In this document: positions 3,014 to 21,039 of the stretch, piece after piece | Numbering within the stretch: position 1 is the stretch's first letter | Layout: every line of letters starts with the position of its first letter | DNA from: Candidatus Omnitrophota bacterium | Lineage (GTDB): Bacteria; Omnitrophota; Gorgyraeia; Zapsychrales; Zapsychraceae | DNA length: 64,000 nt | NCBI GenBank assembly: GCA_020632515.1 | Contig: JACKFK010000006.1 | Coordinates: forward strand, 139,876-203,875 | Direction of reading: 5' to 3' | Notes under the pieces: model-generated | Seen by the model: the letters and a program-made list of their open reading frames with translations, nothing else | What the model was told of the DNA's origin: nothing | Databases searched by the model: none | Made by a program: the position numbers and the translations under genes

Positions 3014-3024
3014 GGATAGAAAAA

Positions 3025-4254: not shown

Positions 4255-4290
4255 TTGTAGTGCTTTTTTAAATTAGAGAAAGGATTGTTT

Positions 4291-4749: not shown

Positions 4750-5232
4750 ATGAAAAAAATAAGGAATAGTTACGGATTTACTTTAGTTGAGTTGATGCTG
4801 GTTGTTTTGTTATTGACTGTAATTGCTGGGCTAACTTTGCCGAATTTCAGCCGTGGTTTTGATTCTATGAAGTTAAAACAAACGGCGAAAGATCTCACCT
4901 ATATGATGCGTTATGCGCAAAGCCGCGCGATCACCAAGAATAAACATGTCCGGTTGGTATTTGAAGAGAATTATCAGCGTTATCACTTAGAAGAAGAAAA
5001 CGGTAGTGATAATTTTGTGCAAGTGAACGGACGAGCTGGTCGGATTTTTCATATCCCTTCAGGAATACAAATTGAGAGTGATAATGATGAAATTCTTTTT
5101 TTTCCTGACGGGCAAATTGAGAAATTGTATGTTTACATTTGTCAGCGGGAAAAATGTTTTACGGTTTCCACAAAAGAACAGCGTGGTCATGCGTTGTTAT
5201 ACAACGAGAGGGTTGAGGAAGAAAGGTTATAG
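4750..5232 (+). CDS. gspH: Minor pseudopilin, GspH/FimT-like
   Basis: Prepilin site G|FTLVELMLV, size about 160 aa, TAKDL..MMRYAQSRAI motif typical of the GspH family, position after gspG. Confidence 0.75.
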   Translation: MKKIRNSYGFTLVELMLVVLLLTVIAGLTLPNFSRGFDSMKLKQTAKDLTYMMRYAQSRAITKNKHVRLVFEENYQRYHLEEENGSDNFVQVNGRAGRIFHIPSGIQIESDNDEILFFPDGQIEKLYVYICQREKCFTVSTKEQRGHALLYNERVEEERL

Positions 5233-8200
5233 ATCTATGTTGCCTGAAATGTTAATGCTACTCGTATTAGGCCCTAATTGAACATTTGGTTTTCCGTTGG
5301 CTTTAAAAGTGTTGCGTAAAACATCTACGTCTATTGAATTTGAAATGTACATAGCTCCGGTATTTCCTTCTAGATAATTGTCAGTGATATCAATAGCGCC
5401 GAGCATACCACGCTCAACTTTAACACCCCAACGGTTATTGAGCATACGATTGTTATGGACTTTAACTTGGGTTGAATCGCTTTGCATATAAACACCAATC
5501 TGTAGAGAACCAGTGAAAGTATTGTCATAAATATCCGCGCCTACTGTTGAACCTACCCGCACTCCACCGCCGGTGTTGCTGCCGCGCTGGCTGTTGTCAT
5601 GAATGTTACAGCCAAAAATGGTGACATCATCCCAGCCGACACTGGCCTGAATACCGTGATACCAGTTTGAATAGATTTCGCTATTTTTGATAACAACGCC
5701 TGAGCTGTGTTTTTCAACCGTATTCGAAGCGAGTTTAATACCGTGTCCGTTTCCGCCGCCGCCAGCTAAATTTGTTGTTGAGACTTTCACATTATCAATC
5801 GTGACATTGTGTGTTGGGTGTTGTAGGCTTCCTGTAATTCCGATTCCCCAATGGCCGTGGCCATGCGTTTCAGAGTTTTTAACGGTAATGAATTCTGTTT
5901 TTCCAGAACCGGAGAAACTGTCGTTTCCAATACGGAATCCAACAACCGCATTTTTGACGATGATACCGTCAACGATGATATGGCTCACATCATGAATATA
6001 AAGATTATTAACGCCAGTGCTGGTTTGAATTGTGACTTTCTTAGAGTTCACAGCTTTAATTGTGATCGGTTTAGTGCTGGTTCCACTGTTGGTGTGGCAT
6101 TCAACCGACTCATTATATAATCCATCTTCGATAAATAATGTTTCACCGGCTTTGACAGTATTACATCCTTTATTAATAGTTCTCCAAGGGCTTGTTTTAC
6201 TTCCGCTGTTACTATCATTTCCTATTAGCGAAACATAATAACTGGCTCCTGTTGAAGGTGGCGGAGGAGGCGGCGGTGGTGGAGGGGGCTCTGGTGATGG
6301 TAATTCAATATCAGTCTTGATTAAATAAGTTGAAAATTCAGCTGATGCGACAGGCACATCCACCGGGCCGTTATAATTTCCCGAAACTAAAGGTAACCCA
6401 AAGGCATCTTTGATATCATAAATTCCGAATGTTTGATTTTGTTCGACAACTTGTGATAAGTCGACGGCGACGGTTGTGTTGAGCTTCCAATTAAAGATAA
6501 GTAAGAAACTTTTCTTTGGATTGTAATCATTTGGAATGATACTGATCTTATTAGAAAGCGTTAAAGGGATTTCAGTGGAATTGTTATCAAACATTTTTCC
6601 AGCTAAAGAAGTTTCATTTTGCCATTGATTGATATTCAAAGACGTAAATGTTAGATTATCTGCTTTGAGAGATCCTTTAAATGTTCCAGAGAAAGTGTTG
6701 TCATCAATTACATCATCAGGATCTAAGTTTGAGCATCCTTCACAATTATTGTCAGTTGTTACAGCTGTAGAAATAGTGATATGATCTGCCGGCGGAAGAA
6801 GGAAGCTGTTTCCAGTATAAATATTTGGTGTAGGTTTAGAATTGTCAGCAATGTCATCGCCCCAGAATTTGGAAATTGTTAGTCCTCCTCGTCCGAGATA
6901 GTTGTTTTTAAATTCAGCTTGAAGCGGCATTAGCGCACCTAATATTGGTGAAGTGTTATAAAAGTAATTCTTATTTAAGGTGATGTGACTGGAAGAGTTT
7001 GTAAATTCTCCGATGATAAATGGACGGTTGGCAAAAATGTTTGATTCAAGGTATAGGCCGGTCACAGATGGAGTACAGTTTTGACATTCGCTGTAGGCGT
7101 GGAAATTGTAGGCTGCGTTAGCATCATTATCGATGAGAATATTATTTACAAAGTATTTCCATCCATTATTTTCATACGAATTACGGATTGTAATTCCATG
7201 CGCATTTGTTGTAGCCGTGGCACTTCCTTTTCCGGCTGAATGAATGATATTTCCGTAAAAGACATGATCCCGTCCGAAATCCCAGGCCTGAACACCTATC
7301 TTATTGAAGGTGTGGTGAATGTAGTTGTTAATAAGATGCAAACCTTCCGCTAGAACAACAACCCCGGCCCCACTGCTAATGCCGTCAGGGTCAGTGATCT
7401 CCATGCCCCAGATCCAGTTATATTTTCCTTTGATCGTGAAATTTCCTTCAATCGTAACTTGATTGTTATTGATCGCACGGAAAACAATAGGGTACTGTTT
7501 GCTTCCATTGGCTATTAATGTGTATGCGCCTTGATAGGTGCCATCCATCAGCCAGTATAAATCTCCGGCTGTGGCGTTGCTGATGGCCTGGTCGATATTC
7601 ATTGGATTTGCAGAGGTTCCAGCACCGGTACCGTTCGCGGAAACATAAAACTCTCTTAAAGGGATAAAAGTATTGATCCAAGGCAAGGGTTCATTATATT
7701 CAAAGGCTCCGATGTCATAATTAAAATCTAATGGGCGGTTTAGACCGTCAAAATCTTCGAATATATTTAAAATTTCTTTTCCGGAATTAACCGCAGGACT
7801 GGTTCGGCTTAATTTATAATCTTTGCTAGCCAGGCTGATAAAAAGCGGATCAAATTCATCTCCAATAAGATTATCCGTCAATATTGCTGTCGAGGAATTA
7901 TTCTTAAGGTTGGTGTTGTTTAAAGAGAGAAGGTTATTGGTTAAACTAACAGTTTTTGCCTGTGCGGATATTTCGATACCGGTATTAGTATGATAGGAGA
8001 TTAGATTGTTTGTTAAATCCGCTGTCTCGGCATTATTCGTCAAGAAAACGCCGTTTTGGTTATTTTGTGCAATTGTATTATTATGGATTGTTACGTTACT
8101 GGCTTGATCCATATAAATCCCGTTTTGACCAAAATGATGAATAAGTGAATTTGTGATAGCGATATTGTCGGCGGTTCCGGTGATAATGATTCCATGATTT

Positions 8201-11200
8201 GTTCCGTCTTTGAATTCACAGCGTTCAACTTTGATATGATTCGCGGTGGAATTGATTTCAAGGCCGTTAAGGATATTTTTTGCATCAAACGTCAGGTGAA
8301 TTAACTTAATAAATTGTTCACCCTGATTAAATTTTAATATCGAAGAGCCGGTAGTAGTTTTTAATACGACTATTTCATCAGGATAGCTTGTGATTATAAT
8401 TGGATCATCCCATGAAGTTCCGTTTGGAATGATAGTGTTTGCTGGAATTGTGTACATACCGTCGCGTAGATATAGAGTGTCTCCTGGAAGAAGCAGGCTT
8501 AAGGCTTTGGTGATTGTCTTTAATGGAAAGTTTTCAGTTCCAGGATTTGTGTCATTTCCTGTTGGCGAAAGATAATAGCTTTTATGATTTGTCTGCGTGT
8601 GATTCTCAACCGTGACATTGATAACGGATGATGTGGTTTGATTACCGGCAGCATCTTTGGCCACAGCTTTTAATGTATGAGTTCCGTTTGTATCCAACGT
8701 TGTGTTCCAATTGATAGTGAATGGTTCTTGTGTTTTGGCAATGCCTAAAGGTTTATTATCCAGCATGAATTGAACACTTGTTACACCGACATTATCGTTG
8801 GCTTGCGCGGTAATTGTAATCGTATTAAAAATAAGCGCGTTATTTAATGGTGCTGTTAATGAAATAGAAGGGGCGATATTGTCAACAGCTGGAGTTAATG
8901 AACAATCTATTTCACAACCGTCTCCGGAAATATCATTCGCATCATCACATTCTTCATTGAGTCCTGATTGCACAATGCCATCGCCGCAAGTTTCAACGAT
9001 ACAGTTGGCCGAGCATCCATCATTTGAGGTTTGATTACCATCATCGCACTGTTCGGGAGTTTCGGTTGTTCCGTTCCCGCATTGGGCAGCCGTAATTCCA
9101 GAGCAAGTGACGTTGCATTGGTTTGGTTGGCCATTTTGTTGACCGTCATCACAAATTTCGTTGCCATCAATGGATCCGTCTCCACAGAATAATTGACTGG
9201 AACAGTTGTTAAATCCTGAACACTGTTGATTACAACTTTTATTTCCAGGATATCCGGCTGTTGTTGTGCAGGATGTAAGGTTGCCATCACAAAGTTCACC
9301 AATGCCGGTTTGAATAATCTGATCTCCACAAATCTCATTTTTACATTGTGCGTTACAGCCATCATTCGATTTTATATTACCATCATCACATTGCTCGCCG
9401 GATTCGAGAATATTGTTGCCGCAGACTGCTGTAGTTTTAGCAGAGCAGGAGGCATTACATTTGTTAGGTTGGCCATTTAAAGAGCCATCATCGCATGTTT
9501 CAGTGCCATTGATGACGCCATCGCCGCAAAATTCGCTTTGACATTGCGCGTTACAACCGTCATTAGAGATAATGTTACCATCGTCGCATTCTTCGCCGGA
9601 TTCAAGAACGTTGTTGCCGCAGATACCTGTGGTCTGTCCGGAGCAGGTGCTGTTGCAATGATTTGGCTGTCCGTTTAACTGAGCTTCATCACAAATTTCC
9701 GATCCATTAACAATGCCGTCGCCGCAAGACTCACTGCTGATACAGGCTGTGAAACCAGTACATAAATTGTTGCATTCCTTTGTTCCTTTATAGCCTTTGT
9801 TCGTTGTGCAGCCTCTGCTGTTAGCATCGCATATTTCATGAACTCCTGAGCCATTATTCATTTGAACAATCCCATCGCCACAAATTGTAAGCTGACATGA
9901 GCTTGTACATTGTGAAGATCCTGTAGACCCGTCGTCGCATTCTTCGCCGTTTTCCTGGATGGAATTTCCGCAAACAGCAGTGGTGATGGCTGTACAACTG
10001 CTGTTACAATGATTGGCTTGCCCGTTAATTGTGCCTTCGTCACAGATTTCATGACCGTTTATAATGCCATCGCCGCAAAATTCTGAAGATACGCATGATG
10101 AAAAAGCTGTGCATTGATCGTTGCAGTATTTTGTTCCAGCATAACCGGTGCTAGTTAAACAGGATTCATTATTCGAATCGCAGATTTCAGTAACTTGATT
10201 TCCGTTTGGAGATTGTATAAGATGATCCCCGCATTGCGTGATTTTGCAGTCTATATTACATTGAGAAGATCCTGCAGAGCCGTCATCGCATTCCTCACCG
10301 TCTTCTATAATATCGTTACCACAAGTGCTGGGAACTTTACCATTACAGCTTATATTACACTGATTCGGTTGACCATTTAAAGAAGCGTCATCACAGGTTT
10401 CTTGGCCGTTAATGATGCCGTCGCCGCAGAAATTTGAACTCACACACATTGAAAATCCACTGCATTCTGTATTGCAGTCTTGAGAACCAACATACCCATC
10501 GGTAGTGATACATTGCTGCGAATTGCTATCGCAGGTTTCTGTTTTTTTCATGCCATTGAGAGATTGAATAATTTGATCGCCGCATTTGGTTAATTGACAT
10601 TGAGAGGTGCATTGATCAGATCCTTCACTTCCGTCATCACATGATTCTCCAGATTCTTGAACGCTATTGCCGCAAACAGGGGAAGTGATGGCTGTACATT
10701 GTTGATTACAATGGTTTGGTTGCCCGTTGAGGGTGCCATCATCACATTGCTCATGTCCATTGATAATTCCATCACCGCAAGATTCAATGGCTGTACATGT
10801 ATTGAAATTAGAGCATTGATTGTTACATTGTTGAGTACCTTTATATCCACTATCAGTCGTACAGGATTGACTGTTCGAATCACAGATTTCGTTAAAGTTA
10901 AATCCGTTTGGTTTTTGAATAGTTCCATCATTACAGTAGGTGAAGTTACATTGTGCGCTGCAACGCTGAGATCCATTGGGGCCATCGTCACAAATCTCAC
11001 TGCCTTCGATGATGTTGTTCCCACAAATTGCGGCGGTTAATCCGGAACAGGAGGTGTTGCATTTATTCGGCTGGCCGTTGGCAGTTCCGTTATCACAAAC
11101 CTCATTATTATTTTTTATACCATCGCCGCAAAATTCCAACTGACATGTATTGGTGCAGCCATCCCCGGAAACTGTATTACCATCATCACATTTCTCTCCG

Positions 11201-14200
11201 AGGGATGTCTGAAGAATACTGTCTCCACAGAATTCAATCTGACATTTGTTGGAACAGCCGTCACCGGAGAAAATATTATGATCGTCACATTGTTCGCCTA
11301 ATCCTTTTTGAATGATATTGTCTCCGCAAATTTCCAATTTACAGGAAGAAGAGCAGCCGTCTCCTGAGACTTTGTTGCCGTCATCGCAAAATTCTCCGAT
11401 AGCCGATTGACGGATGCCGTCGCCGCAAAATTCTAAAGTACAGGATGAGGAACAACCGTCTTTATCTGTTAAATTGCTGTCGTCGCATTCCTCACCAGAT
11501 TCTTTAAAACCGTTGCCGCAAACAGCGGGTGTGGTGCCGGAACATGTTGCATTACATTGATTCGGTTGACTGTTTAAATTTCCGTCATCACATTGCTCAT
11601 TTTGTTCAAGGATTTGGTTTCCGCAAATAGGAGCGGTAATTCCGCTGCAAGACGTGTTGCAAGCATTCGGTTGACCGTTTTGAACACCGTCGTCACAAAC
11701 TTCGTTATTGTTTTTGATGTTGTCCCCGCAAACTTCTTTTAAACATTGCGCGGTACAACCGTCGTTAGAAACAGTATTGCCATCGTCACATTGCTCGCCT
11801 AAAGTGCTTTGCGTGATGCCGTCTCCGCAGGACTCGCTGCGGCAGGTTTGGCTGCAGCCGTCACCGGATACTGTATTACCGTCATCACAGACTTCACCGA
11901 TTGTATTTTGAATGAGACCGTCTCCACAGAATTCTGTAATACACGATTTATTACAGCCGTCACCGGAAAGGTTGTTGCCGTCATCGCATTGCTCGCCTAA
12001 ACCAATTTGTGTGATTCCATCTCCACAGGTTTCAATTTGACAGGAGCTGGAGCAAGTATCTTCGGAGATTGTATTATGATCATCACAACTTTCCCCAGTT
12101 TCTTGAACACCGTTGCCGCAGATAGAAGGCGAGACGCCGTCGCAAGTTGTGCTGCAGGCATTGGGCGCGCCGTTGTTAATACCATCATCACACGTTTCTC
12201 CTAATTGAGATTGGATAATGCCGTCTCCACAAATTTCCTGAACACATTCATTGGTGCAACCATCGCCGGATATTTGATTACCGTCATCACATTCTTCATT
12301 AAGTCCAGGTTGAACGATCTGATCGCCACAGCTTTCCAAATGACATTGTGAAGAGCATCCATCTTCGGATTGGATGTTTCCATCGTCACAAACTTCATTG
12401 GCTTCTATAATACTATTGCCGCATGCTGAAGGAGTAACACCGTTGCAAGTTGCATTACAATGATTAGGAGTATTGTTTTGATTGCCATCATCACACGTTT
12501 CTTGGCCATTCAAAATACCGTCTCCACAAAACTCGACAGGTGAACATGACGTGAAGCTTAAGCAATCTCCTTGGCATACTTGAGTTCCTTGATAACCGTC
12601 GTTTGTAACACAGTTCTGCGTGTTGGAATCACAAATTTCTTGAACGGTATGTCCATTCGGTGTTTGCACAGTGCCGTCTCCGCAGGATGTTAAAAGACAG
12701 GAGGGTGTACAAAGAGAAGAGCCTTGCGTACCATCATCGCATTCTTCATTAGATTCTTTAACACCATTACCGCAGATAGGGTTCGTTATGCCGCTGCAGG
12801 AGTTGTTGCACGCATTCGGTGTTCCATTGTTTTCGCCATCATCACATGTTTCCGTACCGTTTTTAATGCCGTCGCCGCAAAATTCCGTGGAAGAACATCC
12901 CAAAAATCCAGAGCATGAAGTATTGCAGCTTTGAGAACCTGCATATCCTTCAGGTGTTGTACAGTTTTGTATATTTTTATCACAGACTTCGCTTAAATTT
13001 GGTTGAATGATACCGTCGCCACAAATTTCCTGTTTACAGCTGGCGTTACATCCATCCCCGCTGATCGTGTTATGATCGTCACAGTTTTCACCAAGCTTTG
13101 GTTGGATAATGCCATCGCCGCAAAATTCGATCTTACATTTCGAAGAGCATCCGTCTCCGGAAAAGAGGTTGTGGTCATCACATTCTTCACCCAGTCCTGG
13201 TTGAACAATGCTGTCTCCACAGATTTCAATTTGACACGATGCCGAACACCCATCGCCAGAGATGTTGTTCCCATCATCACATTTTTCACCAAGATTATTT
13301 TGACGAATGCCATCCCCACAGGATTCATTGTGGCATTGATTGTCACACCCATCACCATTAGCGGTGTTGCCGTCATCACATTCTTCTCCTAAACCGGATT
13401 GACGGATATTATCTCCGCAAAATTCCTTAATACAGTTTTGGGTGCAGCCGTCACCGGAAGAATGATTGCCATCATCGCATTCTTCAGAAGGTTCAATAAC
13501 GTTGTTACCGCAAACAGAGGGGCAGTCTTGTGAACATGTTAAGGAAGACTCTGCTGGTTCTGTACAAACACCGTCACCACAAAATAAATCAGAGCGGCAG
13601 TTTTCAAATGATGAGCATTGATCGTTACAATTTTGAATGCCCGGATAGCCGTTGGTTGTTGTACAATTTTTTTGCTCTGAATCACAGGTTTCATTTAATC
13701 CTGGTTGAATGATGCCGTCACCGCAAGATTCAATAATACATTGATTGGAACATCCATCTTCGGAGGATTGATTGCCGTCATCACATTGTTCACCTAGGCC
13801 TGATTGGATAATGCCGTCGCCACAAATTTCAATTTGGCAAGAAGCTGAACAACCGTCCTCGGAGTTTACGTTGTTGTCATCACATTCTTCCTGGGGTTCA
13901 AGAATTCCGTTTCCGCATTCAGCCGGACAATCAGTAGAACAATTAAGTGATGATTCAGCTGATGATGTACAGATGCCGTCTCCGCAGAATAAAGAAGTGG
14001 CACACTCGTTGAATGAAGCGCAGTTATCATTACAAGATTGTTCTCCTGGATATCCTTCTGCTGTTGTACAGTTTTGTGTGTTGGAATCGCAGGCTTCTCC
14101 AATACCTGTTTGCGTTATTTCATCTCCACAGAATTCGTTGATACAATTCGCTGAACAACCGTCGCCGGAATTAAGGTTGCCGTCATCACATTCTTCTTGC

Positions 14201-16407
14201 GGTTCGGTAATGCCATTTCCGCATTGGGCCGGACAATCGGTTAAACAATTGAAAGGTGATTCAACTGAAGAGGTGCAAATTTGGTCGCCGCAAAAGAGAT
14301 CGCTTTGACAAGTATTAAAAGCAGAACAGTCGTTTGTACACGTTTGAGTTCCGGGATATCCTGTGTCAGTGGTACAGTCTTGAATGTTGGTATCACAAAT
14401 TTCGTTTAATCCAGGTTGGGTGATTTGATCTCCACAGAATTCCAATTGGCAGGAAGAGGAGCAACCGTCTTCAGATGTTTGATTGCCGTCATCGCAAGCT
14501 TCATTAAGGGCGGATTGTTGAATACCGTCCCCGCAAAATTCGATAATACAATTTTCATTACAACCGTCTCCGGATTCGTTGTTTTGGTCGTCACATTCTT
14601 CACTTAAATTCGGATGGACAATGCCGTCGCCGCAAAATTCTACAATACATAGGTGATTACATCCATCTCCATCAATAGTGTTTTGATCATCACATTCTTC
14701 ACCAAGTTGAGGATGAAGAATGCCATCGCCGCAGATTTCAGCAACACAGTTGGTGTCACACCCATCGCCAATAATGCTGTTGCCATCATCGCATTGTTCG
14801 TTTAAAGATTTTTGGGTAATGCCATCCCCGCAGATTTCGATCTGACATGTGGCTGAACAACCGTCTTCGGAATCTTGATTTCCATCATCGCATGCTTCAC
14901 CATTTTCGATGACACTATTGCCGCAGACAGGTTGGCAATCATTGCCGCAGATATTTGCGTTCTCTGGTTGAGAACAGATACCATCGCCGCAAAAGAGGGT
15001 TGTTATACATGGCTCAAAGGCAGAACATTCAGTGTTACATGTTTGTGTTCCAGCGTACCCATCTGTTGTGGTACAAGCGATAATGTCTTGATCGCAGAAT
15101 TCATCGAGTCCTTTTTGGGTAACACCGTCGCCACAAAATTCTTTTAAACAGGCATCGGAACAACCGTCTTCGGATTGTTGGTTTGCATCGTCACATTCTT
15201 CACCGATTCCGGTTTGAATTGTTCCATCCCCGCAGAATTCGAGTTGACAAGAACTGGAGCATCCGTCTCGGTTAACAGTGTTTTGGTCGTCGCATTCTTC
15301 ACCAAGTCCTTTTTGGATGATTCCGTCTGAGCAGAACTCACGTTGACAAGAAGAGGAACATCCATCTTCAGAGTTTTGGTTACCGTCATCGCATTGTTCA
15401 CCTTGATTGGGATGCACAATTCCGTCACCACAAAATTCTAATAAACATTGCGCAGTACAGCCATCCCCATTGAGTTTATTTCCATCATCACATTCTTCGC
15501 CGAAAGAAGTTTGAATGTTACCATCTCCGCAGCGGTCAACGGTTCCTACTGTGATGCTGCCACCATAAATAACAGTTGGCGTGGTTGGGGCGGATGTATT
15601 TGTTGTTTGTTGGTTATTGGTTGAAGGCGCGTTTTCAGTTGAAGGTGATTCAGTAAATGTGCTGTTACTTGATGATGAGCTGTTAGATTGTTGCTTTTTA
15701 TTATTGGAGTCGTTCTTCGAAGATTTTTCCAGATCAGGACAGTCTAACGGACAAGATCGATTGTTTTCCCGCGGAGAAGAACAGATGCTGTCGCCGCAAA
15801 ATTCTCTCTGACAGTTTGCGGAACAACCGTCTCCGGAATTGATGTTACGGTCGTCGCATTGTTCCCCTAACCCAACCTGAACCAGCCCGTCTCCGCAGAA
15901 TTCGGTTTGACAGGTCGCAGAGCAACCGTCTTCAGATTTAAGGTTACCATCATCACATAATTCTCCTAAAGAGGTTTGAACAATACCATCAGAGCATAGT
16001 TCATACTGGCAATTTGCGGAACAGCCGTCTTCCGATTGGGTGTTGCCGTCATCGCATTGTTCATCGGAATCAATTTGCAAAATATTGTCGCCGCAGAATC
16101 CAGGGGTTGAAGCGTCTTCAGTTAATTGGGGCGAGTAAATCATTTCGAATGGCGCTGTTTTACCAGAATCTATGGTGTCGTATAGAGCTTCATAATCAAA
16201 AGCATTGGATGAAAAAGAATTGTAATTATTGGAGGAAATTATAGAGTTTTTGTTGGTATAGGAATTAAGGGGATTAAATCCATTTACTGTGATTCTATAA
16301 GGATTTTGCGAGCGAGCATAGTCCTGCCCAGACGCAGTCTTTATATGTAATCCGATTGTTGCGAATACGGTAATAATGAGTACGCTCTTTAAATAAGACT
16401 TAAACAT
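5227..16407 (-). CDS. Giant secreted protein 1 (3726 aa): signal peptide, about 67 Cys-rich repeats, Ig-like domain, 3 parallel beta-helix modules, poly-Pro linker
   Basis: Single uninterrupted ORF. N-terminal MFKSYLKSVLIITVFATIGLHIKTASG|Q looks like a Sec signal peptide. AGAGGA lies 3 nt upstream of the ATG. Domain content is listed in the sub-features. Confidence 0.9.
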   Translation of the reverse strand: MFKSYLKSVLIITVFATIGLHIKTASGQDYARSQNPYRITVNGFNPLNSYTNKNSIISSNNYNSFSSNAFDYEALYDTIDSGKTAPFEMIYSPQLTEDASTPGFCGDNILQIDSDEQCDDGNTQSEDGCSANCQYELCSDGIVQTSLGELCDDGNLKSEDGCSATCQTEFCGDGLVQVGLGEQCDDRNINSGDGCSANCQREFCGDSICSSPRENNRSCPLDCPDLEKSSKNDSNNKKQQSNSSSSSNSTFTESPSTENAPSTNNQQTTNTSAPTTPTVIYGGSITVGTVDRCGDGNIQTSFGEECDDGNKLNGDGCTAQCLLEFCGDGIVHPNQGEQCDDGNQNSEDGCSSSCQREFCSDGIIQKGLGEECDDQNTVNRDGCSSSCQLEFCGDGTIQTGIGEECDDANQQSEDGCSDACLKEFCGDGVTQKGLDEFCDQDIIACTTTDGYAGTQTCNTECSAFEPCITTLFCGDGICSQPENANICGNDCQPVCGNSVIENGEACDDGNQDSEDGCSATCQIEICGDGITQKSLNEQCDDGNSIIGDGCDTNCVAEICGDGILHPQLGEECDDQNTIDGDGCNHLCIVEFCGDGIVHPNLSEECDDQNNESGDGCNENCIIEFCGDGIQQSALNEACDDGNQTSEDGCSSSCQLEFCGDQITQPGLNEICDTNIQDCTTDTGYPGTQTCTNDCSAFNTCQSDLFCGDQICTSSVESPFNCLTDCPAQCGNGITEPQEECDDGNLNSGDGCSANCINEFCGDEITQTGIGEACDSNTQNCTTAEGYPGEQSCNDNCASFNECATSLFCGDGICTSSAESSLNCSTDCPAECGNGILEPQEECDDNNVNSEDGCSASCQIEICGDGIIQSGLGEQCDDGNQSSEDGCSNQCIIESCGDGIIQPGLNETCDSEQKNCTTTNGYPGIQNCNDQCSSFENCRSDLFCGDGVCTEPAESSLTCSQDCPSVCGNNVIEPSEECDDGNHSSGDGCTQNCIKEFCGDNIRQSGLGEECDDGNTANGDGCDNQCHNESCGDGIRQNNLGEKCDDGNNISGDGCSASCQIEICGDSIVQPGLGEECDDHNLFSGDGCSSKCKIEFCGDGIIQPKLGENCDDHNTISGDGCNASCKQEICGDGIIQPNLSEVCDKNIQNCTTPEGYAGSQSCNTSCSGFLGCSSTEFCGDGIKNGTETCDDGENNGTPNACNNSCSGITNPICGNGVKESNEECDDGTQGSSLCTPSCLLTSCGDGTVQTPNGHTVQEICDSNTQNCVTNDGYQGTQVCQGDCLSFTSCSPVEFCGDGILNGQETCDDGNQNNTPNHCNATCNGVTPSACGNSIIEANEVCDDGNIQSEDGCSSQCHLESCGDQIVQPGLNEECDDGNQISGDGCTNECVQEICGDGIIQSQLGETCDDGINNGAPNACSTTCDGVSPSICGNGVQETGESCDDHNTISEDTCSSSCQIETCGDGITQIGLGEQCDDGNNLSGDGCNKSCITEFCGDGLIQNTIGEVCDDGNTVSGDGCSQTCRSESCGDGITQSTLGEQCDDGNTVSNDGCTAQCLKEVCGDNIKNNNEVCDDGVQNGQPNACNTSCSGITAPICGNQILEQNEQCDDGNLNSQPNQCNATCSGTTPAVCGNGFKESGEECDDSNLTDKDGCSSSCTLEFCGDGIRQSAIGEFCDDGNKVSGDGCSSSCKLEICGDNIIQKGLGEQCDDHNIFSGDGCSNKCQIEFCGDSILQTSLGEKCDDGNTVSGDGCTNTCQLEFCGDGIKNNNEVCDNGTANGQPNKCNTSCSGLTAAICGNNIIEGSEICDDGPNGSQRCSAQCNFTYCNDGTIQKPNGFNFNEICDSNSQSCTTDSGYKGTQQCNNQCSNFNTCTAIESCGDGIINGHEQCDDGTLNGQPNHCNQQCTAITSPVCGNSVQESGESCDDGSEGSDQCTSQCQLTKCGDQIIQSLNGMKKTETCDSNSQQCITTDGYVGSQDCNTECSGFSMCVSSNFCGDGIINGQETCDDASLNGQPNQCNISCNGKVPSTCGNDIIEDGEECDDGSAGSSQCNIDCKITQCGDHLIQSPNGNQVTEICDSNNESCLTSTGYAGTKYCNDQCTAFSSCVSSEFCGDGIINGHEICDEGTINGQANHCNSSCTAITTAVCGNSIQENGEECDDGSTGSSQCTSSCQLTICGDGIVQMNNGSGVHEICDANSRGCTTNKGYKGTKECNNLCTGFTACISSESCGDGIVNGSEICDEAQLNGQPNHCNSTCSGQTTGICGNNVLESGEECDDGNIISNDGCNAQCQSEFCGDGVINGTETCDDGSLNGQPNKCNASCSAKTTAVCGNNILESGEQCDDGNIKSNDGCNAQCKNEICGDQIIQTGIGELCDGNLTSCTTTAGYPGNKSCNQQCSGFNNCSSQLFCGDGSIDGNEICDDGQQNGQPNQCNVTCSGITAAQCGNGTTETPEQCDDGNQTSNDGCSANCIVETCGDGIVQSGLNEECDDANDISGDGCEIDCSLTPAVDNIAPSISLTAPLNNALIFNTITITAQANDNVGVTSVQFMLDNKPLGIAKTQEPFTINWNTTLDTNGTHTLKAVAKDAAGNQTTSSVINVTVENHTQTNHKSYYLSPTGNDTNPGTENFPLKTITKALSLLLPGDTLYLRDGMYTIPANTIIPNGTSWDDPIIITSYPDEIVVLKTTTGSSILKFNQGEQFIKLIHLTFDAKNILNGLEINSTANHIKVERCEFKDGTNHGIIITGTADNIAITNSLIHHFGQNGIYMDQASNVTIHNNTIAQNNQNGVFLTNNAETADLTNNLISYHTNTGIEISAQAKTVSLTNNLLSLNNTNLKNNSSTAILTDNLIGDEFDPLFISLASKDYKLSRTSPAVNSGKEILNIFEDFDGLNRPLDFNYDIGAFEYNEPLPWINTFIPLREFYVSANGTGAGTSANPMNIDQAISNATAGDLYWLMDGTYQGAYTLIANGSKQYPIVFRAINNNQVTIEGNFTIKGKYNWIWGMEITDPDGISSGAGVVVLAEGLHLINNYIHHTFNKIGVQAWDFGRDHVFYGNIIHSAGKGSATATTNAHGITIRNSYENNGWKYFVNNILIDNDANAAYNFHAYSECQNCTPSVTGLYLESNIFANRPFIIGEFTNSSSHITLNKNYFYNTSPILGALMPLQAEFKNNYLGRGGLTISKFWGDDIADNSKPTPNIYTGNSFLLPPADHITISTAVTTDNNCEGCSNLDPDDVIDDNTFSGTFKGSLKADNLTFTSLNINQWQNETSLAGKMFDNNSTEIPLTLSNKISIIPNDYNPKKSFLLIFNWKLNTTVAVDLSQVVEQNQTFGIYDIKDAFGLPLVSGNYNGPVDVPVASAEFSTYLIKTDIELPSPEPPPPPPPPPPPSTGASYYVSLIGNDSNSGSKTSPWRTINKGCNTVKAGETLFIEDGLYNESVECHTNSGTSTKPITIKAVNSKKVTIQTSTGVNNLYIHDVSHIIVDGIIVKNAVVGFRIGNDSFSGSGKTEFITVKNSETHGHGHWGIGITGSLQHPTHNVTIDNVKVSTTNLAGGGGNGHGIKLASNTVEKHSSGVVIKNSEIYSNWYHGIQASVGWDDVTIFGCNIHDNSQRGSNTGGGVRVGSTVGADIYDNTFTGSLQIGVYMQSDSTQVKVHNNRMLNNRWGVKVERGMLGAIDITDNYLEGNTGAMYISNSIDVDVLRNTFKANGKPNVQLGPNTSSINISGNIDL
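5230..6255 (-). other. Parallel beta-helix module 3 (C-terminal) of giant protein 1
   Basis: SYYVSLIGNDSNSGSKTSPWRTINKGCNTVKAGETLFIEDGLYNES cap. Repeated turns (HGIGITG, HGIKLAS, HGIQASV, NN.W). Confidence 0.7.
6256..6288 (-). repeat. 11 consecutive proline codons (linker PSPE-P11-S)
   Basis: Read directly: ccc cct cca cca ccg ccg cct cct ccg cca cct on the minus strand. Confidence 0.95.
6301..7670 (-). other. Parallel beta-helix module 2 plus a C-terminal beta-sandwich-like domain (about 6301-6700) of giant protein 1
   Basis: FYVSANGTGAGTSANPMNIDQAISNATAGDLYWLMDGTY cap. Repeated NN.I.H turns. Distal segment SLNINQWQ...FSTYLIKTD. Confidence 0.55.
7690..8585 (-). other. Parallel beta-helix module 1 of giant protein 1
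   Basis: N-cap YYLSPTGNDTNPGTENFPLKTITKAL....PGDTLYLRDGMY. Repeated N.I..N....GI turns. C-terminal SPAVNSG....DFDG..RP....YDIGAFEY. Confidence 0.7.
8600..8890 (-). other. Ig-like (bacterial Ig / cadherin-like) domain of giant protein 1
   Basis: DNIAPSISLTAP...ANDNVGVTSVQF.LDNKPLG...PF.INWNT....NGTHTLKAVAKDAAGN...S..INVTV. Confidence 0.6.
8900..16098 (-). repeat. Array of about 67 cysteine-rich repeats (33-52 aa units; consensus CGDG(I/V).Q..LGE.CDDGN..SGDGCS..C..E.), interrupted once by an S/N/T/Q-rich linker (about 15560-15735)
   Basis: Hand parse of the translation gives 4 units before the linker and 63 after. The consensus matches my memory of the Myxococcus cysteine-rich repeat (TIGR02232 / Pfam DUF4215, PF13948). 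Not verified by HMM. Confidence 0.8.
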
Positions 16408-16617
16408 TCATCCTCTGCTTAAGTCCTAAATAAGGAAGCCTGTTTCTTGAACTACAAGAGACAGGCCTAAACCATTCAAAATCAAAATTACCATCTTGAT
16501 TTTGGCGGCTAGGCTATCCTTATTTAAGGACCCTTGGCTTTGCTCTTACAAGTAATTGCTTGTAAGACTCTTCAAAACTTAATTAATGTTTGAAGAGGTC
16601 CCTGGGTTACCCCAGGT
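16408..16617 (-). promoter_or_regulatory. Highly structured candidate 5' leader of giant gene 1 (six helices)
   Basis: Pairings read directly:
- 16423-16440 with 16512-16531 (18 bp, 2 bulges), enclosing hairpins 16441-16449/16455-16463 and 16477-16485/16496-16504.
- 16544-16552/16559-16567.
- 16568-16576/16589-16597.
- 16601-16606/16611-16616, whose loop reads GUAA on the minus strand.
Strand assignment is inferred. Confidence 0.4.
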
Positions 16618-16778
16618 TTGCCTTTTACATTTCAAGAATTTGCTGTTTGCTTATTCAAGTATATACGGTAATTGAATAAAAATAATCGAGTGAATTGGAG
16701 ATGCAGGAAAACGTTTTCTTTTGCTGTTTTTTAGAGTTTTTTAAATATGGGGTATTTACGTATTACTAAATACATATC

Positions 16779-16796
16779 AATGATCATATGATCATT
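16779..16796. promoter_or_regulatory. 18-bp perfect palindrome AATGATCATATGATCATT in the divergent intergenic region
   Basis: Sequence equals its own reverse complement. It lies between the giant gene 1 start (16407) and gspI (17115). Confidence 0.35.
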
Positions 16797-17114
16797 AATA
16801 ACAAATATTGTGAAGAAAAAGATTGTCAAAAAAATGAAAAAATATCGAAAATATTTATAACTATAAGAGTACTAATATGTTTTAAATTAGGGTGAAACTA
16901 GTCAATTTAAGTAAAGGTTGCATAAAAATTAGATAATACGCGATTTAAACAAGTATGGAAATTTGATGATGATTAATCGTGAAGTAAAAAGGAATGGGCT
17001 ATGTAGAAAGTTTATATCAGGGTATTTCTAAAATAAAGTTGACGAAGTAGTATAAAAAAGATTTTAGTTTTGTTATGATGAAATAATCTATAAATAAAAA
17101 GGATTTTTGATTAT

Positions 17115-17507
17115 ATGAAAAATGAGAGTGGTTCAGTTTTATTAGAAGCCCTGCTGGCAACTGTTATTTTATCTGTTAGTATTACAATTATTATTCAGTC
17201 ATTAACCTCGAGTTTACGGGCCGCGCAGTATAGTTCTCAATATACCGAAGGTTTAATTCTCATTGATGATCAGTTAACCGAATATTTTCAAGAGGGGGTA
17301 GTTGAGTCGGATTTGAATGAGAATGGAAATCTTGCCGCCCCTTATGAAAAATATCAATATAAAGCAAGCACAGAACCTGCAGAGGAATTCGGTGAAAATA
17401 TTAATATTCTTGACTACCAACTAAATTGGCAAAGCGGACGACGGAAGAATAATATTAAAGTGCAAACATTATTGTTTAAAAAAGATGATGAAACAGCAAT
17501 TCAATAA
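17115..17507 (+). CDS. gspI: Minor pseudopilin, GspI-like
   Basis: N-terminus MKNESG|SVLLEALLATVILSV has G at -1 and E at +5, with an atypical S at +1. Size 130 aa. Position before a GspJ-like gene. Confidence 0.6.
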   Translation: MKNESGSVLLEALLATVILSVSITIIIQSLTSSLRAAQYSSQYTEGLILIDDQLTEYFQEGVVESDLNENGNLAAPYEKYQYKASTEPAEEFGENINILDYQLNWQSGRRKNNIKVQTLLFKKDDETAIQ

Positions 17508-18234
17508 TATTTCAAGAGCAAGGCTTATAACGAATAATGGATTTACACTTATCGAGTTATTATTAGCTATAAGCATTTTTTCAATTATAGGGTTAACAGT
17601 TTATAGTGTTTTTTCAAGTGGTATTCGGTTAAGTGAATATTCCGAAGGGCAAGGAGATATTTATCGTCAAGCTAGATGGATTTTGGATTTAATGAGTGCT
17701 GATTTAGAAGCTGCTGTAAATTATGATTTTAGTAGTTTTTATGCTGAAAAAAGTGCTTTTTTAGGAAATAAAGAAGAAATTCAATTCTTGAAAGAAACTA
17801 CGGGAGGTTTAAAAGTTATTAAATATTTTTTGATTGTTCCGGAGAGTTCATCTATTCATAAGGTTATTATTGGAAAAAAATATAAAAAGAATGTTGATAT
17901 TAATTTAGTAAACTCTCAAGCAGAAAGTAGGTATTTTTTAGTTCGAGAAGAAAAATCTTTTTTAGATTTCTTAACTGATGTTAATAGTGATAAAAATAGT
18001 TTGGAAGTTATAGCAACGAATTTCGCGGCAGATGGTTTGCGTTTTAGTTATGGTTTCTTAGATCAGCAAGATTCGTCTGAATCTAGTTGGCGTGATCAAT
18101 GGGACAGGAAGTATGTGCCTATAAACGTTTACGTTGAGATGGATTTAATATCAGAATCAGAAGAAAAAATTATTCATTTTGAAAAGAAAGTCTTAATTCC
18201 AACCGGATTCTGGGGGGAAGAACAGCAGGCATAA
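17485..18234 (+). CDS. gspJ: Minor pseudopilin, GspJ/PulJ-like
   Basis: Prepilin site NNG|FTLIELLLAISIFSIIG, about 250 aa, overlaps the end of gspI. Confidence 0.65.
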   Translation: MMKQQFNNISRARLITNNGFTLIELLLAISIFSIIGLTVYSVFSSGIRLSEYSEGQGDIYRQARWILDLMSADLEAAVNYDFSSFYAEKSAFLGNKEEIQFLKETTGGLKVIKYFLIVPESSSIHKVIIGKKYKKNVDINLVNSQAESRYFLVREEKSFLDFLTDVNSDKNSLEVIATNFAADGLRFSYGFLDQQDSSESSWRDQWDRKYVPINVYVEMDLISESEEKIIHFEKKVLIPTGFWGEEQQA

Positions 18235-18311
18235 AGTTGTTTTTATCTTCATAGAAGATTTTACTTTTTGTTATAATGAGCAATATATAAAAAATAAACA
18301 CACATCTATTT

Positions 18312-19736
18312 ATGAAAAAAGATTTGTTAACCACCGTTGAAATTACGGATTCTCATGTAAAAATTTATCAAAGCCGAGGAGCTAAGACTGGCTCATCGGT
18401 TGGATATTGTGAAGTAAGAGCTTTAAGAAGTCAATCCGATGAAGAGATAAGTAATGTTTTAATTGAAAGCAGATTTCCTAAAAATATATCAAAAGATAAA
18501 TTGACAGTAGTTTTACCGAGAAAATCCGTTATTTTAAAACAGATTAAACTTCCTTCTCATGATTTTGAAGAAATAAAAAAAATGGTGGCATTACAGTTGG
18601 TGAGTTTAATTCCATACGCATTGGATGAAGTTGTTTATGATTTTCATGTTTTAGAAAAAGATTCTGGAGGGTATACAAAAGTTTTAGTTGTTGTGGTTAA
18701 TAAAGACGTTTGTCGGCGATATATTAATATCTTTCAAAGAGCGGGGGTGGTATTTGATAAGTTTGTTTTAAGTTCTTTAGGAATGTTGCAATGGTTACAA
18801 CATCAACAAGTGGATATAAAAATGCCTTCTGTTTTTGTTGATGTGGATTATTCACATTGTGAAATCGGATTTGTTTATCAAAAGACTTTGTTATTCTCGA
18901 GAAGTATTAATTATGGGGCGAAAGATTTTTCGAGTGATAATATGTTGGGTTTGATTGATCAGTTACAGCGTAGTTTGGCAGCTTATCATAAAGAAGGTAT
19001 GGGATCTGAACCGCAAAGAATTTTTCTGATTATTAATGTGATGGAAAAGGATGCTTTGAAGGAACGATTGGAAAGAGAATTTAAGAAGCCGGTTGAAATT
19101 TTATCTGGTTTTGAAAAATTTTCTTTTGCCCGAAATGTGAATATCAATCAAATAAGAAATCAAGGCGGTGTATCATTAGCTGTGGGTTTGGGTATGCTTT
19201 TGAAAGAACCGCAAAAGATGATGAGTTTATTTCCTGCCGAGATTCAGGAAGGAAAAAGAATAAAGGGGCGGCGGAGAAGCTGGGTTATATTTTTCTTATT
19301 ACTTTTAATCAATTTAGGTTTATTTAGCGTTTTACCGACTCTACATTGGCAGCAAAAGGAAAAATATTTAAAACAATTAGAAAACGAAATTCAATCAATT
19401 AAACCGCAGATTGAAGAAGAAAAAAAGAAAAAACAATTCGTTGAAATATTTTATCAAGAGCTAAAGCGGCGTATTATAATTGTGGATTTAATTCATGAAT
19501 TAAACAAATTAACGCCTAATGATATTTCTTTTAGATCTTTATTATTAGACGATAATGGATCGTTTACAATTCAAGGATATGCGCAAACTAGTACTGGAGT
19601 AAATGATTTTCAATCCAGGTTGGTTCGTTCAGCTATTTTTAATGAAGTCAATTTGCAATTTGCGACTAAGCGTAAGATTTTTAATATGGAAGTAACTGAT
19701 TTTAAAATTATATCGAAATTGAAAATTAAAGAATAA
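18312..19736 (+). CDS. PilM-like actin-fold domain fused through one TM helix to a PilN-like periplasmic domain (functional GspL analogue)
   Basis: N-terminal about 300 aa is cytoplasmic. TM helix WVIFFLLLLINLGLFSVLP. Then a coiled coil (QQKEKYLKQLENEIQSIKPQIEEEKKK) and a PilN-type C-terminal fold (ISFRSLLLDDNGSFTIQGYAQT...FQSRL). Gene order supports the call. Confidence 0.6.
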   Translation: MKKDLLTTVEITDSHVKIYQSRGAKTGSSVGYCEVRALRSQSDEEISNVLIESRFPKNISKDKLTVVLPRKSVILKQIKLPSHDFEEIKKMVALQLVSLIPYALDEVVYDFHVLEKDSGGYTKVLVVVVNKDVCRRYINIFQRAGVVFDKFVLSSLGMLQWLQHQQVDIKMPSVFVDVDYSHCEIGFVYQKTLLFSRSINYGAKDFSSDNMLGLIDQLQRSLAAYHKEGMGSEPQRIFLIINVMEKDALKERLEREFKKPVEILSGFEKFSFARNVNINQIRNQGGVSLAVGLGMLLKEPQKMMSLFPAEIQEGKRIKGRRRSWVIFFLLLLINLGLFSVLPTLHWQQKEKYLKQLENEIQSIKPQIEEEKKKKQFVEIFYQELKRRIIIVDLIHELNKLTPNDISFRSLLLDDNGSFTIQGYAQTSTGVNDFQSRLVRSAIFNEVNLQFATKRKIFNMEVTDFKIISKLKIKE

Positions 19737-19753
19737 GTTGAATAAGGAATAAA

Positions 19754-20284
19754 ATGCGAAGTTTTACAACCCGAGAACAAAATATATTCATTTTTTGTCT
19801 AATTTTAATCTTTGTGTATCTAGGATATCAAGGGATTTATAAGAATTTGCAGAATAAATCTCAAGTCTTAGATGATGAGATTAGTAGTATGGAGAGAAAA
19901 ATCCGTAAAGATAGGAAAACGCTCGCCGAGGCAAAGGCTTTTGAAGTTCCATATGAACAATTAGTAAATCAGTTTGAGCAAAAGGTGCCTAATGAGCAGG
20001 TTATGTCAAATTTGATTTCGTTAATTGAAGAAGCTGCTGGAGATTTGGATTTAAGAATTTCTGATCTAAAACCCCAAAGGGTTAAACGAAGTGATACTTA
20101 TAATCGATTTTCTGTGAGTTTAACGATTGATAGTAATTTCGCGGCTATTATGGAATTTCTTTATGTGCTGCAGCAAGATCCTCATAATTTTGATGTTGAT
20201 GAGTTCCGTTTTGACAAGGGAAGTCGTCAGGATACTGATGCGATTAAATCGCGGTTAGTTTTAAGTAAGATATTCATTCCGTAA
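19754..20284 (+). CDS. PilO/GspM-like bitopic assembly protein
   Basis: Single N-terminal TM helix, a coiled coil, and a C-terminal ...RFSVSLTIDSNFAAIMEFLYVLQQ... ferredoxin-like signature typical of PilO. Position after the PilMN fusion. Confidence 0.55.
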   Translation: MRSFTTREQNIFIFCLILIFVYLGYQGIYKNLQNKSQVLDDEISSMERKIRKDRKTLAEAKAFEVPYEQLVNQFEQKVPNEQVMSNLISLIEEAAGDLDLRISDLKPQRVKRSDTYNRFSVSLTIDSNFAAIMEFLYVLQQDPHNFDVDEFRFDKGSRQDTDAIKSRLVLSKIFIP

Positions 20285-20466
20285 AAGTTTTTTAAGTTTT
20301 AAATATTGACTTCTTTCCACCGGAAATGGCATAAATTTCCTTAAATCTGATTGACAGACTAAAACGGATATATAACAATACCTTTATATATAATATTATT
20401 TTAATGTATAAATTATTCTGTAAATTTACTATTAATAAAAATTTTTAGGACGATTGAAAGTGTGGA

Positions 20467-21039
20467 ATGAAACAAAAGAAAAAAGTAGGGGCGAAGTCTA
20501 ATTTATTATTTTTTCTAAACCGTTTTTTCATTTTGGTCGTTATATGTTTAGTAGGTTGGATAGGATATAAATTAAAAAAAATACAAGATGGTAATACACC
20601 CGCGAACTTTCAAGGGAATATTTTTAAAACCGAAGGAACTTTTAAAGGTGAATATAATTTGAAGTTAGAAGGTGTTTTAGATAAACCTTTTAATTATTAT
20701 CAAGGTGAATTGGATAAGCGTAATTTTTTTGAAGCCCCCTGGGAAAAACCACAGATTGAAAAACGTGAAGAGCAAGTCAAGGAGCCGCCAAAACCAAAAA
20801 TTGATTTAAAAACTTTAATTAATTTAGTCGGGATTGTGCTGGATGATGATCCCAAAGCAGTTATTGAAGATTTAAAAACGCAGGAAACTGTTTTTTTGTC
20901 AATTGGTCAGGAAATTAATGAAGCTAAATTAATTGAGATTCATGAGGAAAAGATTATTTTTTTGTATCATGAAGAAAAGCAGGAAATATTTCTAGATAAT
21001 AAAAAAAGCCTTGAAGGGAACGAAGGCGTTGAGATTTAA
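20467..21039 (+). CDS. PilP / GspC(HR-domain)-like secretin-coupling protein
   Basis: N-terminal TM anchor, a Pro/Lys-rich linker, and a small C-terminal beta domain (LVGIVLDDDPKAVIEDLKTQETVFLSIGQEI.EAKLIEIHEEKIIF). Position immediately before the secretin. No PDZ domain. Confidence 0.45.
   Translation: MKQKKKVGAKSNLLFFLNRFFILVVICLVGWIGYKLKKIQDGNTPANFQGNIFKTEGTFKGEYNLKLEGVLDKPFNYYQGELDKRNFFEAPWEKPQIEKREEQVKEPPKPKIDLKTLINLVGIVLDDDPKAVIEDLKTQETVFLSIGQEINEAKLIEIHEEKIIFLYHEEKQEIFLDNKKSLEGNEGVEI

Follow-up and report, generated by a model that had tools for sequence, protein, structure and literature searches.

A new structural variant of the c-di-GMP-I riboswitch aptamer, common in Omnitrophota, and its very probable presence upstream of a giant secreted protein gene

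Background

The P2 stem of c-di-GMP-I (GEMM-I) riboswitches is built of 2-bp and 6-bp stems split by an AAA internal loop, is capped by a GNRA tetraloop and is joined to P3 by an AAA linker (PMC1950547). In Vc2, the long-range pair C44-G83 that docks P2 on P3 is important, as is the tetraloop contact (PMC11705072). Two further reports describe Bc2 of Bacillus thuringiensis, which lies before the collagen-adhesion gene cap and relieves repression at high c-di-GMP (PMC4933901), and Bc1, which has a long expression platform (PMC11218506).

The leader described here lies in a 64-kb stretch of DNA from an uncultured Omnitrophota bacterium (the whole stretch is called the window below), on the sense strand and directly 5' of a gene for a signal-peptide protein. 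The following genes form its setting:

5227..16407, minus strand: gene proposed to be regulated, encoding a 3726-aa secreted protein with a signal peptide, 24 DUF4215 Cys-rich repeats, Big_7 and beta-helix/NosD domains
1316-4728: ATPase, T2SSF and T2SSG genes of a secretion/pilus cluster
17115-22585: pseudopilin, PilM/N, PilO and secretin genes of the secretion/pilus cluster

The giant gene starts at AUG 16407-16405 with the Shine-Dalgarno sequence AGAGGA at 16416-16411, as the original prediction for this locus had stated, together with the 15 nt that separate its longest helix from AUG. The gene runs antisense within a type II secretion/type IV pilus-like cluster whose ATPase contains an MshEN domain; the N-terminus of this ATPase fits what we take to be the MshEN motif for binding c-di-GMP. 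In the databases searched, the N-terminal 122 aa of the giant protein had no homologue and no orthologous giant-gene leader was found. An exact-protein look-up with a neighbouring gene led to six contigs, in which the leader is 100% identical where present and hence uninformative. A promoter scan gave nothing convincing just upstream of the first helix of the leader (P1), and minus-strand candidates occur only 300-440 nt upstream.

A very probable GEMM-I-type aptamer on the minus strand

All inverted repeats named in the original prediction are present and go far beyond chance: the folding energy has z = -7.5 on the minus strand and z = -7.3 on the plus strand, and none of 200 shuffles matches it. 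A cmscan search against Rfam, suggested with that prediction, returned no family at its gathering threshold anywhere in the 64-kb window. With permissive thresholds the same kind of search yields a full-length match to RF03167 (c-di-GMP-I-GGC, clan CL00126) at 16631-16500 on the minus strand (33.1 bits; E = 8.9e-6 locally and 6.3e-4 for the whole window), in whose alignment the window has 72 nt where the model has 18. This is the only credible Rfam match; weak matches to TtnuHACA9, FtrA, MIR7991 and Fibrobacter-1 all have E > 1 and were put down to chance, and the RF01051 score of the window must be below 33.1 bits, against a threshold of 35. The anatomy of the very probable aptamer is as follows:

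16637-16494, minus strand: c-di-GMP-I (GEMM-I) aptamer, comprising P1, P2 (2-bp stem, AAA, and 6-bp stem with GUAA loop), AAA linker and P3
16628..16637, minus strand: P1 5' strand (UCUUG-AAA-UG), which pairs with 16504-16494
16617..16627, minus strand: J1/2 (UAAAAG), 2-bp lower P2 (GC, 16621-16620) and the conserved AAA internal loop
16601..16616, minus strand: upper P2 (CCUGGG-GUAA-CCCAGG), a 6-bp stem with a GUAA (GNRA) tetraloop at 16610-16607
16598..16600, minus strand: GAC, in which C16598 is by the alignments the equivalent of C44, partner in the long-range C44-G83 pair
16568..16597, minus strand: inserted hairpin Ia (CUCUUCAAA...UUUGAAGAG), -7.7 kcal/mol
16544..16567, minus strand: inserted hairpin Ib (UCUUACAAG-CAAUUA-CUUGUAAGA), -9.2 kcal/mol
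16536..16543, minus strand: GCAAAGCC, with G45-C46 closing lower P2, the AAA linker and the start of P3
16507..16539, minus strand: P3 hairpin with a bulged AG and the G83 equivalent at 16514
16494..16506, minus strand: J3/1 GC (C92 equivalent C16505) and P1 3' strand CAAAAUCAAGA

The element reaches about 20 nt further 5' than first drawn, to 16637, taking in the P1 5' strand and J1/2. P1, whose 5' strand lay outside the coordinates originally given, has seven Watson-Crick pairs with a 3x4 internal loop; our hand reading pairs UCUUG-AAA-UG with CA-AAAU-CAAGA, and covariance-model alignments set the inner UG/CA pairs at P1 positions. The three 5' hairpins of the original prediction stand as P2 (16616-16601), Ia (16597-16568) and Ib (16567-16544) and are unchanged in every predicted conformer, and the GUAA loop that it noted on the minus strand was a correct clue to a riboswitch-like leader.

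At the level of single nucleotides, AAAGGCAAAC in the window is identical to the family consensus, C16598 lies within GGGAC and G16514 lies within the AG bulge. The equivalents of G20 (G16622, in J1/2), A47 (A16541, in the AAA linker) and C92 are at the positions that, in Vc2 numbering, are the ligand contacts of the Vc2 crystal structures. Two related identities were rejected on these nucleotides. The GGC variant (RF03167) does not fit an A rather than a G at position 47, nor does 33.1 bits approach its threshold of 59; the 3',3'-cGAMP riboswitch (GEMM-Ib) has A instead of G at position 20, where the window has G16622.

Ia and Ib together form a 54-nt insert (16597-16544) between C44 and G45. 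With it, the internal loop of P2 becomes a four-way junction in which two sides have linkers of zero length. The P3 3' strand, CCUAGCC, leaves A.C and C.A mismatches at the base of P3. This form is common to three relatives (loci L046, L063 and L112, from the survey below), and 13 of 97 family sequences have A opposite C52; the mismatched base is a natural variant, not decay.

Relatives with the two-hairpin insert

GTDB species representatives were scanned with AAAGGCAAAC-N12-24-GGGAC-N28-58-GCAAAGCC, a pattern that combines strings conserved in GEMM-I with a longer gap than usual behind GGGAC and demands nothing else. This gave 55 loci, against roughly 7 expected by chance on our own estimate, and 42 matches have a canonical P2 of 13-14 nt. 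Four of these 42 were set aside as ordinary aptamers in which the last anchor had matched elsewhere, and in one canonical-P2 match, from Ratteibacteria, the gap contains just one hairpin. Of the 38 insert-bearing aptamers, 37 have an insert made up of exactly two adjacent hairpins that abut both anchors and fill it; the same fold test finds two flush hairpins in 3.5% of segments taken at random from genomes and in 6.6% of inserts after shuffling. From locus to locus the hairpins show no relationship in sequence, with no conserved loop or sequence. Because the sequences are unrelated and such folds are rare in random and shuffled segments, it is the shape of the insert that is conserved, not its sequence.

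Of the 36 loci, 23 are, by record title, from Omnitrophota and 10 from 'Planctomycetia/-ales' MAGs (the genome of locus L037 is GCA_020430025.1). A scan of JGI metagenomes added more, giving 71 unique insert-type sequences (the window and 70 others); insert-type aptamers are mostly from Omnitrophota and also occur in 'Planctomycetia' MAGs. No GGC variant (GCGAAGCC) carrying the insert was found among the JGI metagenome matches, and at one Omnitrophota locus (L014) a bona fide GGC aptamer stands in tandem with an insert-type aptamer. Ordinary GEMM-I aptamers are also present in the same genomes. We define the subgroup as AAAGGCAAAC, a 13-nt P2, GGGAC, two flush hairpins (30-58 nt), GCAAAGCC and P3/P1, and the window has all of these features.

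A covariance model (R1) was built from 46 aligned relatives, leaving out the window and using the P1, P2 and P3 pairs as structure. It finds a single match in the 64-kb window, at 16639-16498 on the minus strand (93.3 bits, E = 6e-26), with a score mid-range among 97 matches in the loci. In a 97-sequence alignment the core structure is 93.6% paired, compared to 77.3% in shuffles and 26-47% with slid partners, and 16 of 21 core pairs show compensatory changes on both sides. The P2 helix is 99.4% paired in the family and five of the six upper-P2 pairs have double (compensatory) changes. The columns equivalent to G83 and C92 hold G in 89/89 and C in 88/93 sequences respectively, neither being demanded by the search pattern. 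The original prediction had looked to orthologous giant-gene leaders for covariation; compensatory changes are abundant instead among 96 homologous aptamers.

We consider it very likely that the element in the window is a GEMM-I-type riboswitch. Its junction architecture, ligand-contact nucleotides, C44/G83 nucleotides and position 5' of a gene are those of the class, whereas its Rfam score lies below the gathering threshold and its P2 is not contiguous, C44 being separated from G45; the long insert in P2 makes it a variant of the c-di-GMP-I class. The suggestion of a riboswitch-like leader on the sense strand of the gene has therefore held up, with c-di-GMP-I/GEMM-I aptamer matches, and the family, which had not been recognised at first, is recognisable. 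Nothing was found in support of the other two suggestions made with it, a 5' structure stabilising the mRNA and an independent sRNA.

Genes 3' of the relatives include four type IV pilin genes and three encoding CheY-like receivers (response regulators), as well as genes for a surface protein of >2518 aa, a subtilase, a collagen-repeat protein, transglutaminase-like proteins and some signal-peptide proteins of unknown family. They match the gene class described for GEMM, which is associated with the envelope, the environment or motility (PMC1950547).

Several insert-bearing relatives score above the RF01051 threshold of 35 bits (L035 45.2, L021 41.5, L023 40.8, L048 37.7 and L037 37.0 bits), and in some others the RF01051 match begins within the insert and has Ib in the place of P2. 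Rfam full alignments probably already contain some insert-type members. We found no description of the two-hairpin insert in the literature searched, a library that is incomplete and leaves novelty unproven, and the 2007 description of GEMM makes no mention of such an insert (PMC1950547). The insert-type aptamer is a new structural variant of the c-di-GMP-I riboswitch class, common in Omnitrophota: a lineage-specific architecture of a textbook riboswitch that sits at or below the Rfam threshold, and for which, in some relatives, mistaking Ib for P2 sets the wrong boundaries. For both reasons, riboswitch censuses under-count in candidate phyla.

Competing helices in the putative expression platform

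The region 3' of the aptamer contains strands complementary both to the aptamer and to the start of the giant gene:

16504-16394, minus strand: putative expression platform (~100 nt), 3' of the aptamer
16477..16504, minus strand: H1, anti-P1 hairpin whose 5' arm is the P1 3' strand (arms 16504-16493 / 16488-16477; 12 bp with one minus-strand G.U), -10.2 kcal/mol
16438..16466, minus strand: H2, spacer hairpin inside the three-way junction (arms 16466-16455 / 16449-16438; 12 bp with one minus-strand C.A mismatch), -14.6 kcal/mol, with tail UUCCUUAUUU
16423..16440, minus strand: switching strand B, which can form 18 Watson-Crick pairs with strand A (unfolded P3, 16531-16512)
16394..16428, minus strand: start-site hairpin, in which UAGGACUUAAGCA (16428-16416) pairs with UGUUUAAGUCUUA (16406-16394), -17.2 kcal/mol

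The original prediction had described an 18-bp helix enclosing two 9-bp hairpins, as parts of a single six-helix fold. The 18-bp helix (16531-16512 / 16440-16423) is as described, with two bulges and 18/18 Watson-Crick pairs, and the enclosed hairpins are present with 12 bp each rather than nine. Since the 18-bp helix and H1 draw on the strands of P3 and P1, some of these helices exclude one another, and the single static fold has to be given up. A reservation raised about the minus strand, that a T-G pair on the plus strand becomes A-C there, is cancelled by H1, where a minus-strand G.U corresponds to a plus-strand C.A.

The three competing pairings are specific, and each is significant by itself. 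The duplex of the P1 3' strand with H1 has -12.3 kcal/mol, compared to -6.4 +/- 2.1 in shuffles (12 of 1000 as good); A:B has -27.7 compared to -16.3 +/- 3.1 kcal/mol (1 of 1000); and B:C, where C is the first codons, has -19.2 compared to -7.8 +/- 2.1 kcal/mol (0 of 1000). Since both 3' strands of the aptamer have specific competitors, the three-way junction at 16531-16423 (A:B enclosing H1 and H2) is best read as the aptamer-off conformer. Its helices are thus real, as first described; they belong not to the sensor but to an alternative state of the expression platform that disrupts the aptamer. H2 forms in all predicted states. The start-site hairpin, which shares the 3' part of strand B, has 13 bp and a 9-nt loop (GAGGAUGAA) that holds most of the Shine-Dalgarno sequence, while its stem contains the UG of AUG and codons 2-5.

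A switch built on these strands would work as follows. Without ligand, H1 would capture the P1 3' strand, upon which strand B would invade P3 to give the 18-bp helix of the three-way junction conformer; B, caught by A during transcription and held away from the start site, would leave the ribosome-binding site open. With c-di-GMP bound, P1 and P3 would be locked and strand B free to pair with the first codons as these emerge, so that a 13-bp hairpin, its loop containing the Shine-Dalgarno sequence, would form over AUG and lower translation.

Folding calculations bear on this scheme in both directions. As the transcript grows, A:B is part of the minimum-energy fold for 3' ends between 16423 and about 16395, and is replaced by P3 with B:C after the first codons emerge. 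Forcing A:B raises the mean unpaired probability of AUG from 0.35 to 0.60 and that of positions +4 to +13 from 0.0 to 0.29; the same constraint lowers that of the Shine-Dalgarno sequence from 0.84 to 0.55, which counts against the relay. At equilibrium the model gives the start-site hairpin whether or not the aptamer is enforced, and accessibilities do not differ; enforcing the aptamer puts the ensemble about 17 kcal/mol above the free one. As accessibility of the start site at equilibrium is unchanged by the aptamer, the argument for switching is a kinetic, co-transcriptional one. Comparison gave no support for the platform (H1, H2, A:B and B:C), as no orthologous leader was found in the databases searched.

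Among the relatives, complementarity to P3 is significant (z < -2) in 12 of 62 family members, the window being second strongest with -4.45; anti-P3 pairing is one platform type among several and not a rule of the family. Terminators whose 5' half is the P3/P1 3' strand are present at L044 and L049, an anti-P3 strand overlaps the start codon at L059, and canonical terminators directly follow the aptamer at L046, L063, L112 and L023. The relatives therefore have ordinary riboswitch platforms, which at L044, L049 and L059 compete with the P3/P1 3' strands.

Taking these results together, we lean slightly towards the complete reading: a GEMM-I aptamer with a two-hairpin insert, and a platform that controls initiation of translation of the giant gene and is OFF at high c-di-GMP. 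For the switching logic by itself, translational and OFF at high c-di-GMP, we consider the balance about even. On this reading an unannotated 250-nt leader gains a function, and a giant secreted protein of an uncultured Omnitrophota bacterium would be linked to c-di-GMP signalling, within a secretion/pilus cluster whose ATPase also carries an MshEN domain predicted to bind c-di-GMP. The three-strand relay would be a clear example of the usual logic inverted.

Alternative explanations

The strongest competitor, which we consider unlikely, keeps the same riboswitch and changes its logic: H2 (16466-16438) and UUCCUUAUUU would act as an intrinsic terminator, or the leader would be an ON switch. 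The 12-bp hairpin of H2 is stable, and seven of the 10 nt in the run behind it are U; the close relatives L046, L063 and L112 have terminators immediately 3' of the aptamer. An ON switch would agree with the ON-type platforms of L044, L049 and L059 and with the fact that adhesin-like genes are often switched on by c-di-GMP. Bc2 before cap is an example (PMC4933901). However, H2 is present in every predicted state with no antiterminator evident, its U-tract is broken compared to the 7-9 straight U of the relatives' terminators, and it was not called by a terminator scan. The ligand can only free strand B, and free B closes the start site.

GEMM-I variants of altered specificity are known (the GGC and UAU families and cGAMP), and the two-hairpin shape persists through 71 unique sequences whose inserts are otherwise free to vary, which implies selection on shape. 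The insert also adjoins C44, a nucleotide essential for folding and binding (PMC11705072). The aptamer might thus sense another ligand, or c-di-GMP together with a second input, the hairpins beside C44 reshaping the pocket or binding a protein. We think this very unlikely, given that all first-shell nucleotides are of the c-di-GMP type (G20 not A, A47 not G, and C92), nothing conserved in the hairpins, in loop or sequence, hints at a specific contact, and the gene associations are typical of control by c-di-GMP. A somewhat less remote, still improbable idea is that the hairpins are a functional module (for example a second input by way of a protein or RNA partner, or a tuner of affinity or specificity) and mark a distinct riboswitch subclass with altered sensing. 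If true, the giant surface proteins and pili of these ultra-small, possibly host-dependent bacteria would through this aptamer come under c-di-GMP or a related signal.

It is most improbable that the leader is a static structure that stabilises the mRNA or binds a protein and whose aptamer-like portion has decayed to a relic. In favour of a relic are the Rfam score below threshold, the two mismatches at the base of P3 and a thermodynamic model in which the lowest energy belongs to a fold other than the aptamer. Nevertheless, with 93.3 bits on the family model the window ranks among intact members, the mismatched P3 recurs in relatives as set out above, and both 3' strands of the aptamer have specific and statistically significant competitors. 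Specific competing strands of this kind are what characterises a switch.

It can practically be dismissed that the element belongs to the plus strand, or that it is an independent small RNA with no relation to the giant gene: the plus-strand fold is nearly as good (z = -7.3) and a terminator-like site was called on that strand at 16601-16616, but this call is the reverse complement of P2 and the AAAAGGCAAA junction (J1/2), the covariance-model matches, here and in the relatives, all lie on the minus strand in the same orientation as the gene that follows, and no plus-strand gene reads into the region.

Comparison with known systems

The minus-strand aptamer shares with c-di-GMP-I (GEMM-I; RF01051), for example Vibrio cholerae Vc2, the three-helix junction, the form of P2, the AAA linker, the G20, A47 and C92 ligand contacts, the nucleotides of the C44/G83 tertiary pair and a 5' position before envelope, pilus and surface genes. 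It differs from RF01051 in the 54-nt two-hairpin insert and resulting four-way junction, in the A.C and C.A mismatches at the base of P3 and in its sub-threshold score. In RF01051 aptamers a GAAA tetraloop goes with a receptor in P3, and a GYRA loop occurs where the receptor is lacking (the 'type 2' form); the window, with a GUAA loop, no 11-nt receptor and a bulged A near the base of P3, would fit 'type 2'. Across the family, the correlation between tetraloop and receptor has p = 0.37, by a crude pattern that mis-flagged even the window.

The best-scoring Rfam model, c-di-GMP-I-GGC (RF03167), has in common with the window the AAAGGCAAA junction and the AGCC..GCC 3' half. It is set apart by its defining G47, where the window has A (GCAAAGCC, not GCGAAGCC), and by the distance between 33.1 bits and its threshold of 59.

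Bc1 and Bc2 resemble the present locus in being c-di-GMP-I riboswitches associated with a large surface or adhesion protein and equipped with long multi-helix platforms (PMC4933901, PMC11218506). Bc1 and Bc2 use terminators, whereas the window would use a three-strand relay at the ribosome-binding site, with an inferred polarity opposite to that of Bc2.

Variation of the insert and tandem aptamers

The extra hairpins Ia and Ib, which set the riboswitch aptamer of the giant gene apart as an insert type, lie after GGGAC, between C44 and G45. In 20 of the 71 unique family members Ia starts with GUCC (e.g. at the relatives' loci L021, L044, L048 and L067), and in those members whose Ia was read to its end it finishes with GGAC, repeating the preceding GGGAC. 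This repeat may point to local duplication as its origin, or to another possible donor of the C44-like cytosine. The same aptamer type occurs in Candidatus Ratteibacteria (L038, 7247-7368; 91.1 bits on R1, our covariance model built from 46 relatives), where the insert position holds a single 27-nt hairpin rather than two.

Aptamers also occur in succession. Locus L048 carries two of the insert type (2702-2835 and 2857-2990); on the minus strand of L014 an insert-type aptamer (1754-1621) is followed 69 nt on by a bona fide aptamer of the c-di-GMP-I-GGC variant (1552-1475; 72.2 bits).

Downstream layout in the P3 subclade

Three relatives that share the P3 form of the window (L046, L063 and L112) have a canonical terminator with 7-9 U directly 3' of the aptamer, then a conserved promoter-like site (TTGACA-17-TATAAx), and a type IV pilin gene approximately 330-380 nt 3' of the aptamer. 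Given this order, the riboswitch and its terminator may form a short transcript of their own or act as a modulator of read-through.

Consequences for annotation

At L053, L042, L010 and L059 the matches to the Rfam c-di-GMP-I model (RF01051) start inside the insert. Automatic annotation of these loci would therefore give wrong aptamer boundaries, because the model aligns Ib as P2. A terminator-like site was also called on the plus strand of the window at 16601-16626 (CCTGGGTTACCCCAGG plus TTTGCCTTTT); we rejected it, as it is the reverse complement of P2 and the conserved AAAAGGCAAA junction. The same false-positive call should probably be expected at other GEMM-I aptamers.

Intergenic region 5' of the riboswitch

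Inspection for inverted repeats identified two further elements in the window:
16775-16800, near-perfect palindrome with arms TATCAATGATCAT and ATGATCATTAATA, containing ATGATCAT in tandem
16651-16679, minus strand, 11-bp AU-rich hairpin UUAUUCAAUUA...UACUUGAAUAA

The palindrome lies in the middle of the 700-bp intergenic region from which the giant gene and the pilus/secretion operon diverge, and is therefore a possible operator site. The hairpin is 13 nt 5' of P1 and may overlap the leader's promoter or its 5' end.

Other genes in the window

Two other genes were considered:
28528-37995, plus strand, second giant gene (3155 aa; beta-helix, fn3, DUF1565)
1316-3013, plus strand, type II secretion/type IV pilus ATPase (T2SSE) with N-terminal MshEN domain (PF05157, 4e-18)

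Upstream of the second giant gene, neither R1 nor any Rfam family matches. Within the MshEN domain of the ATPase, PLGQLLVEKGVISQEQLNTALQKQ...LLGATLMALGFIDEETIFLPVLAGQ resembles the c-di-GMP-binding MshEN motif; if this motif is genuine, the cluster around the giant gene would have a second c-di-GMP input, at the protein level.
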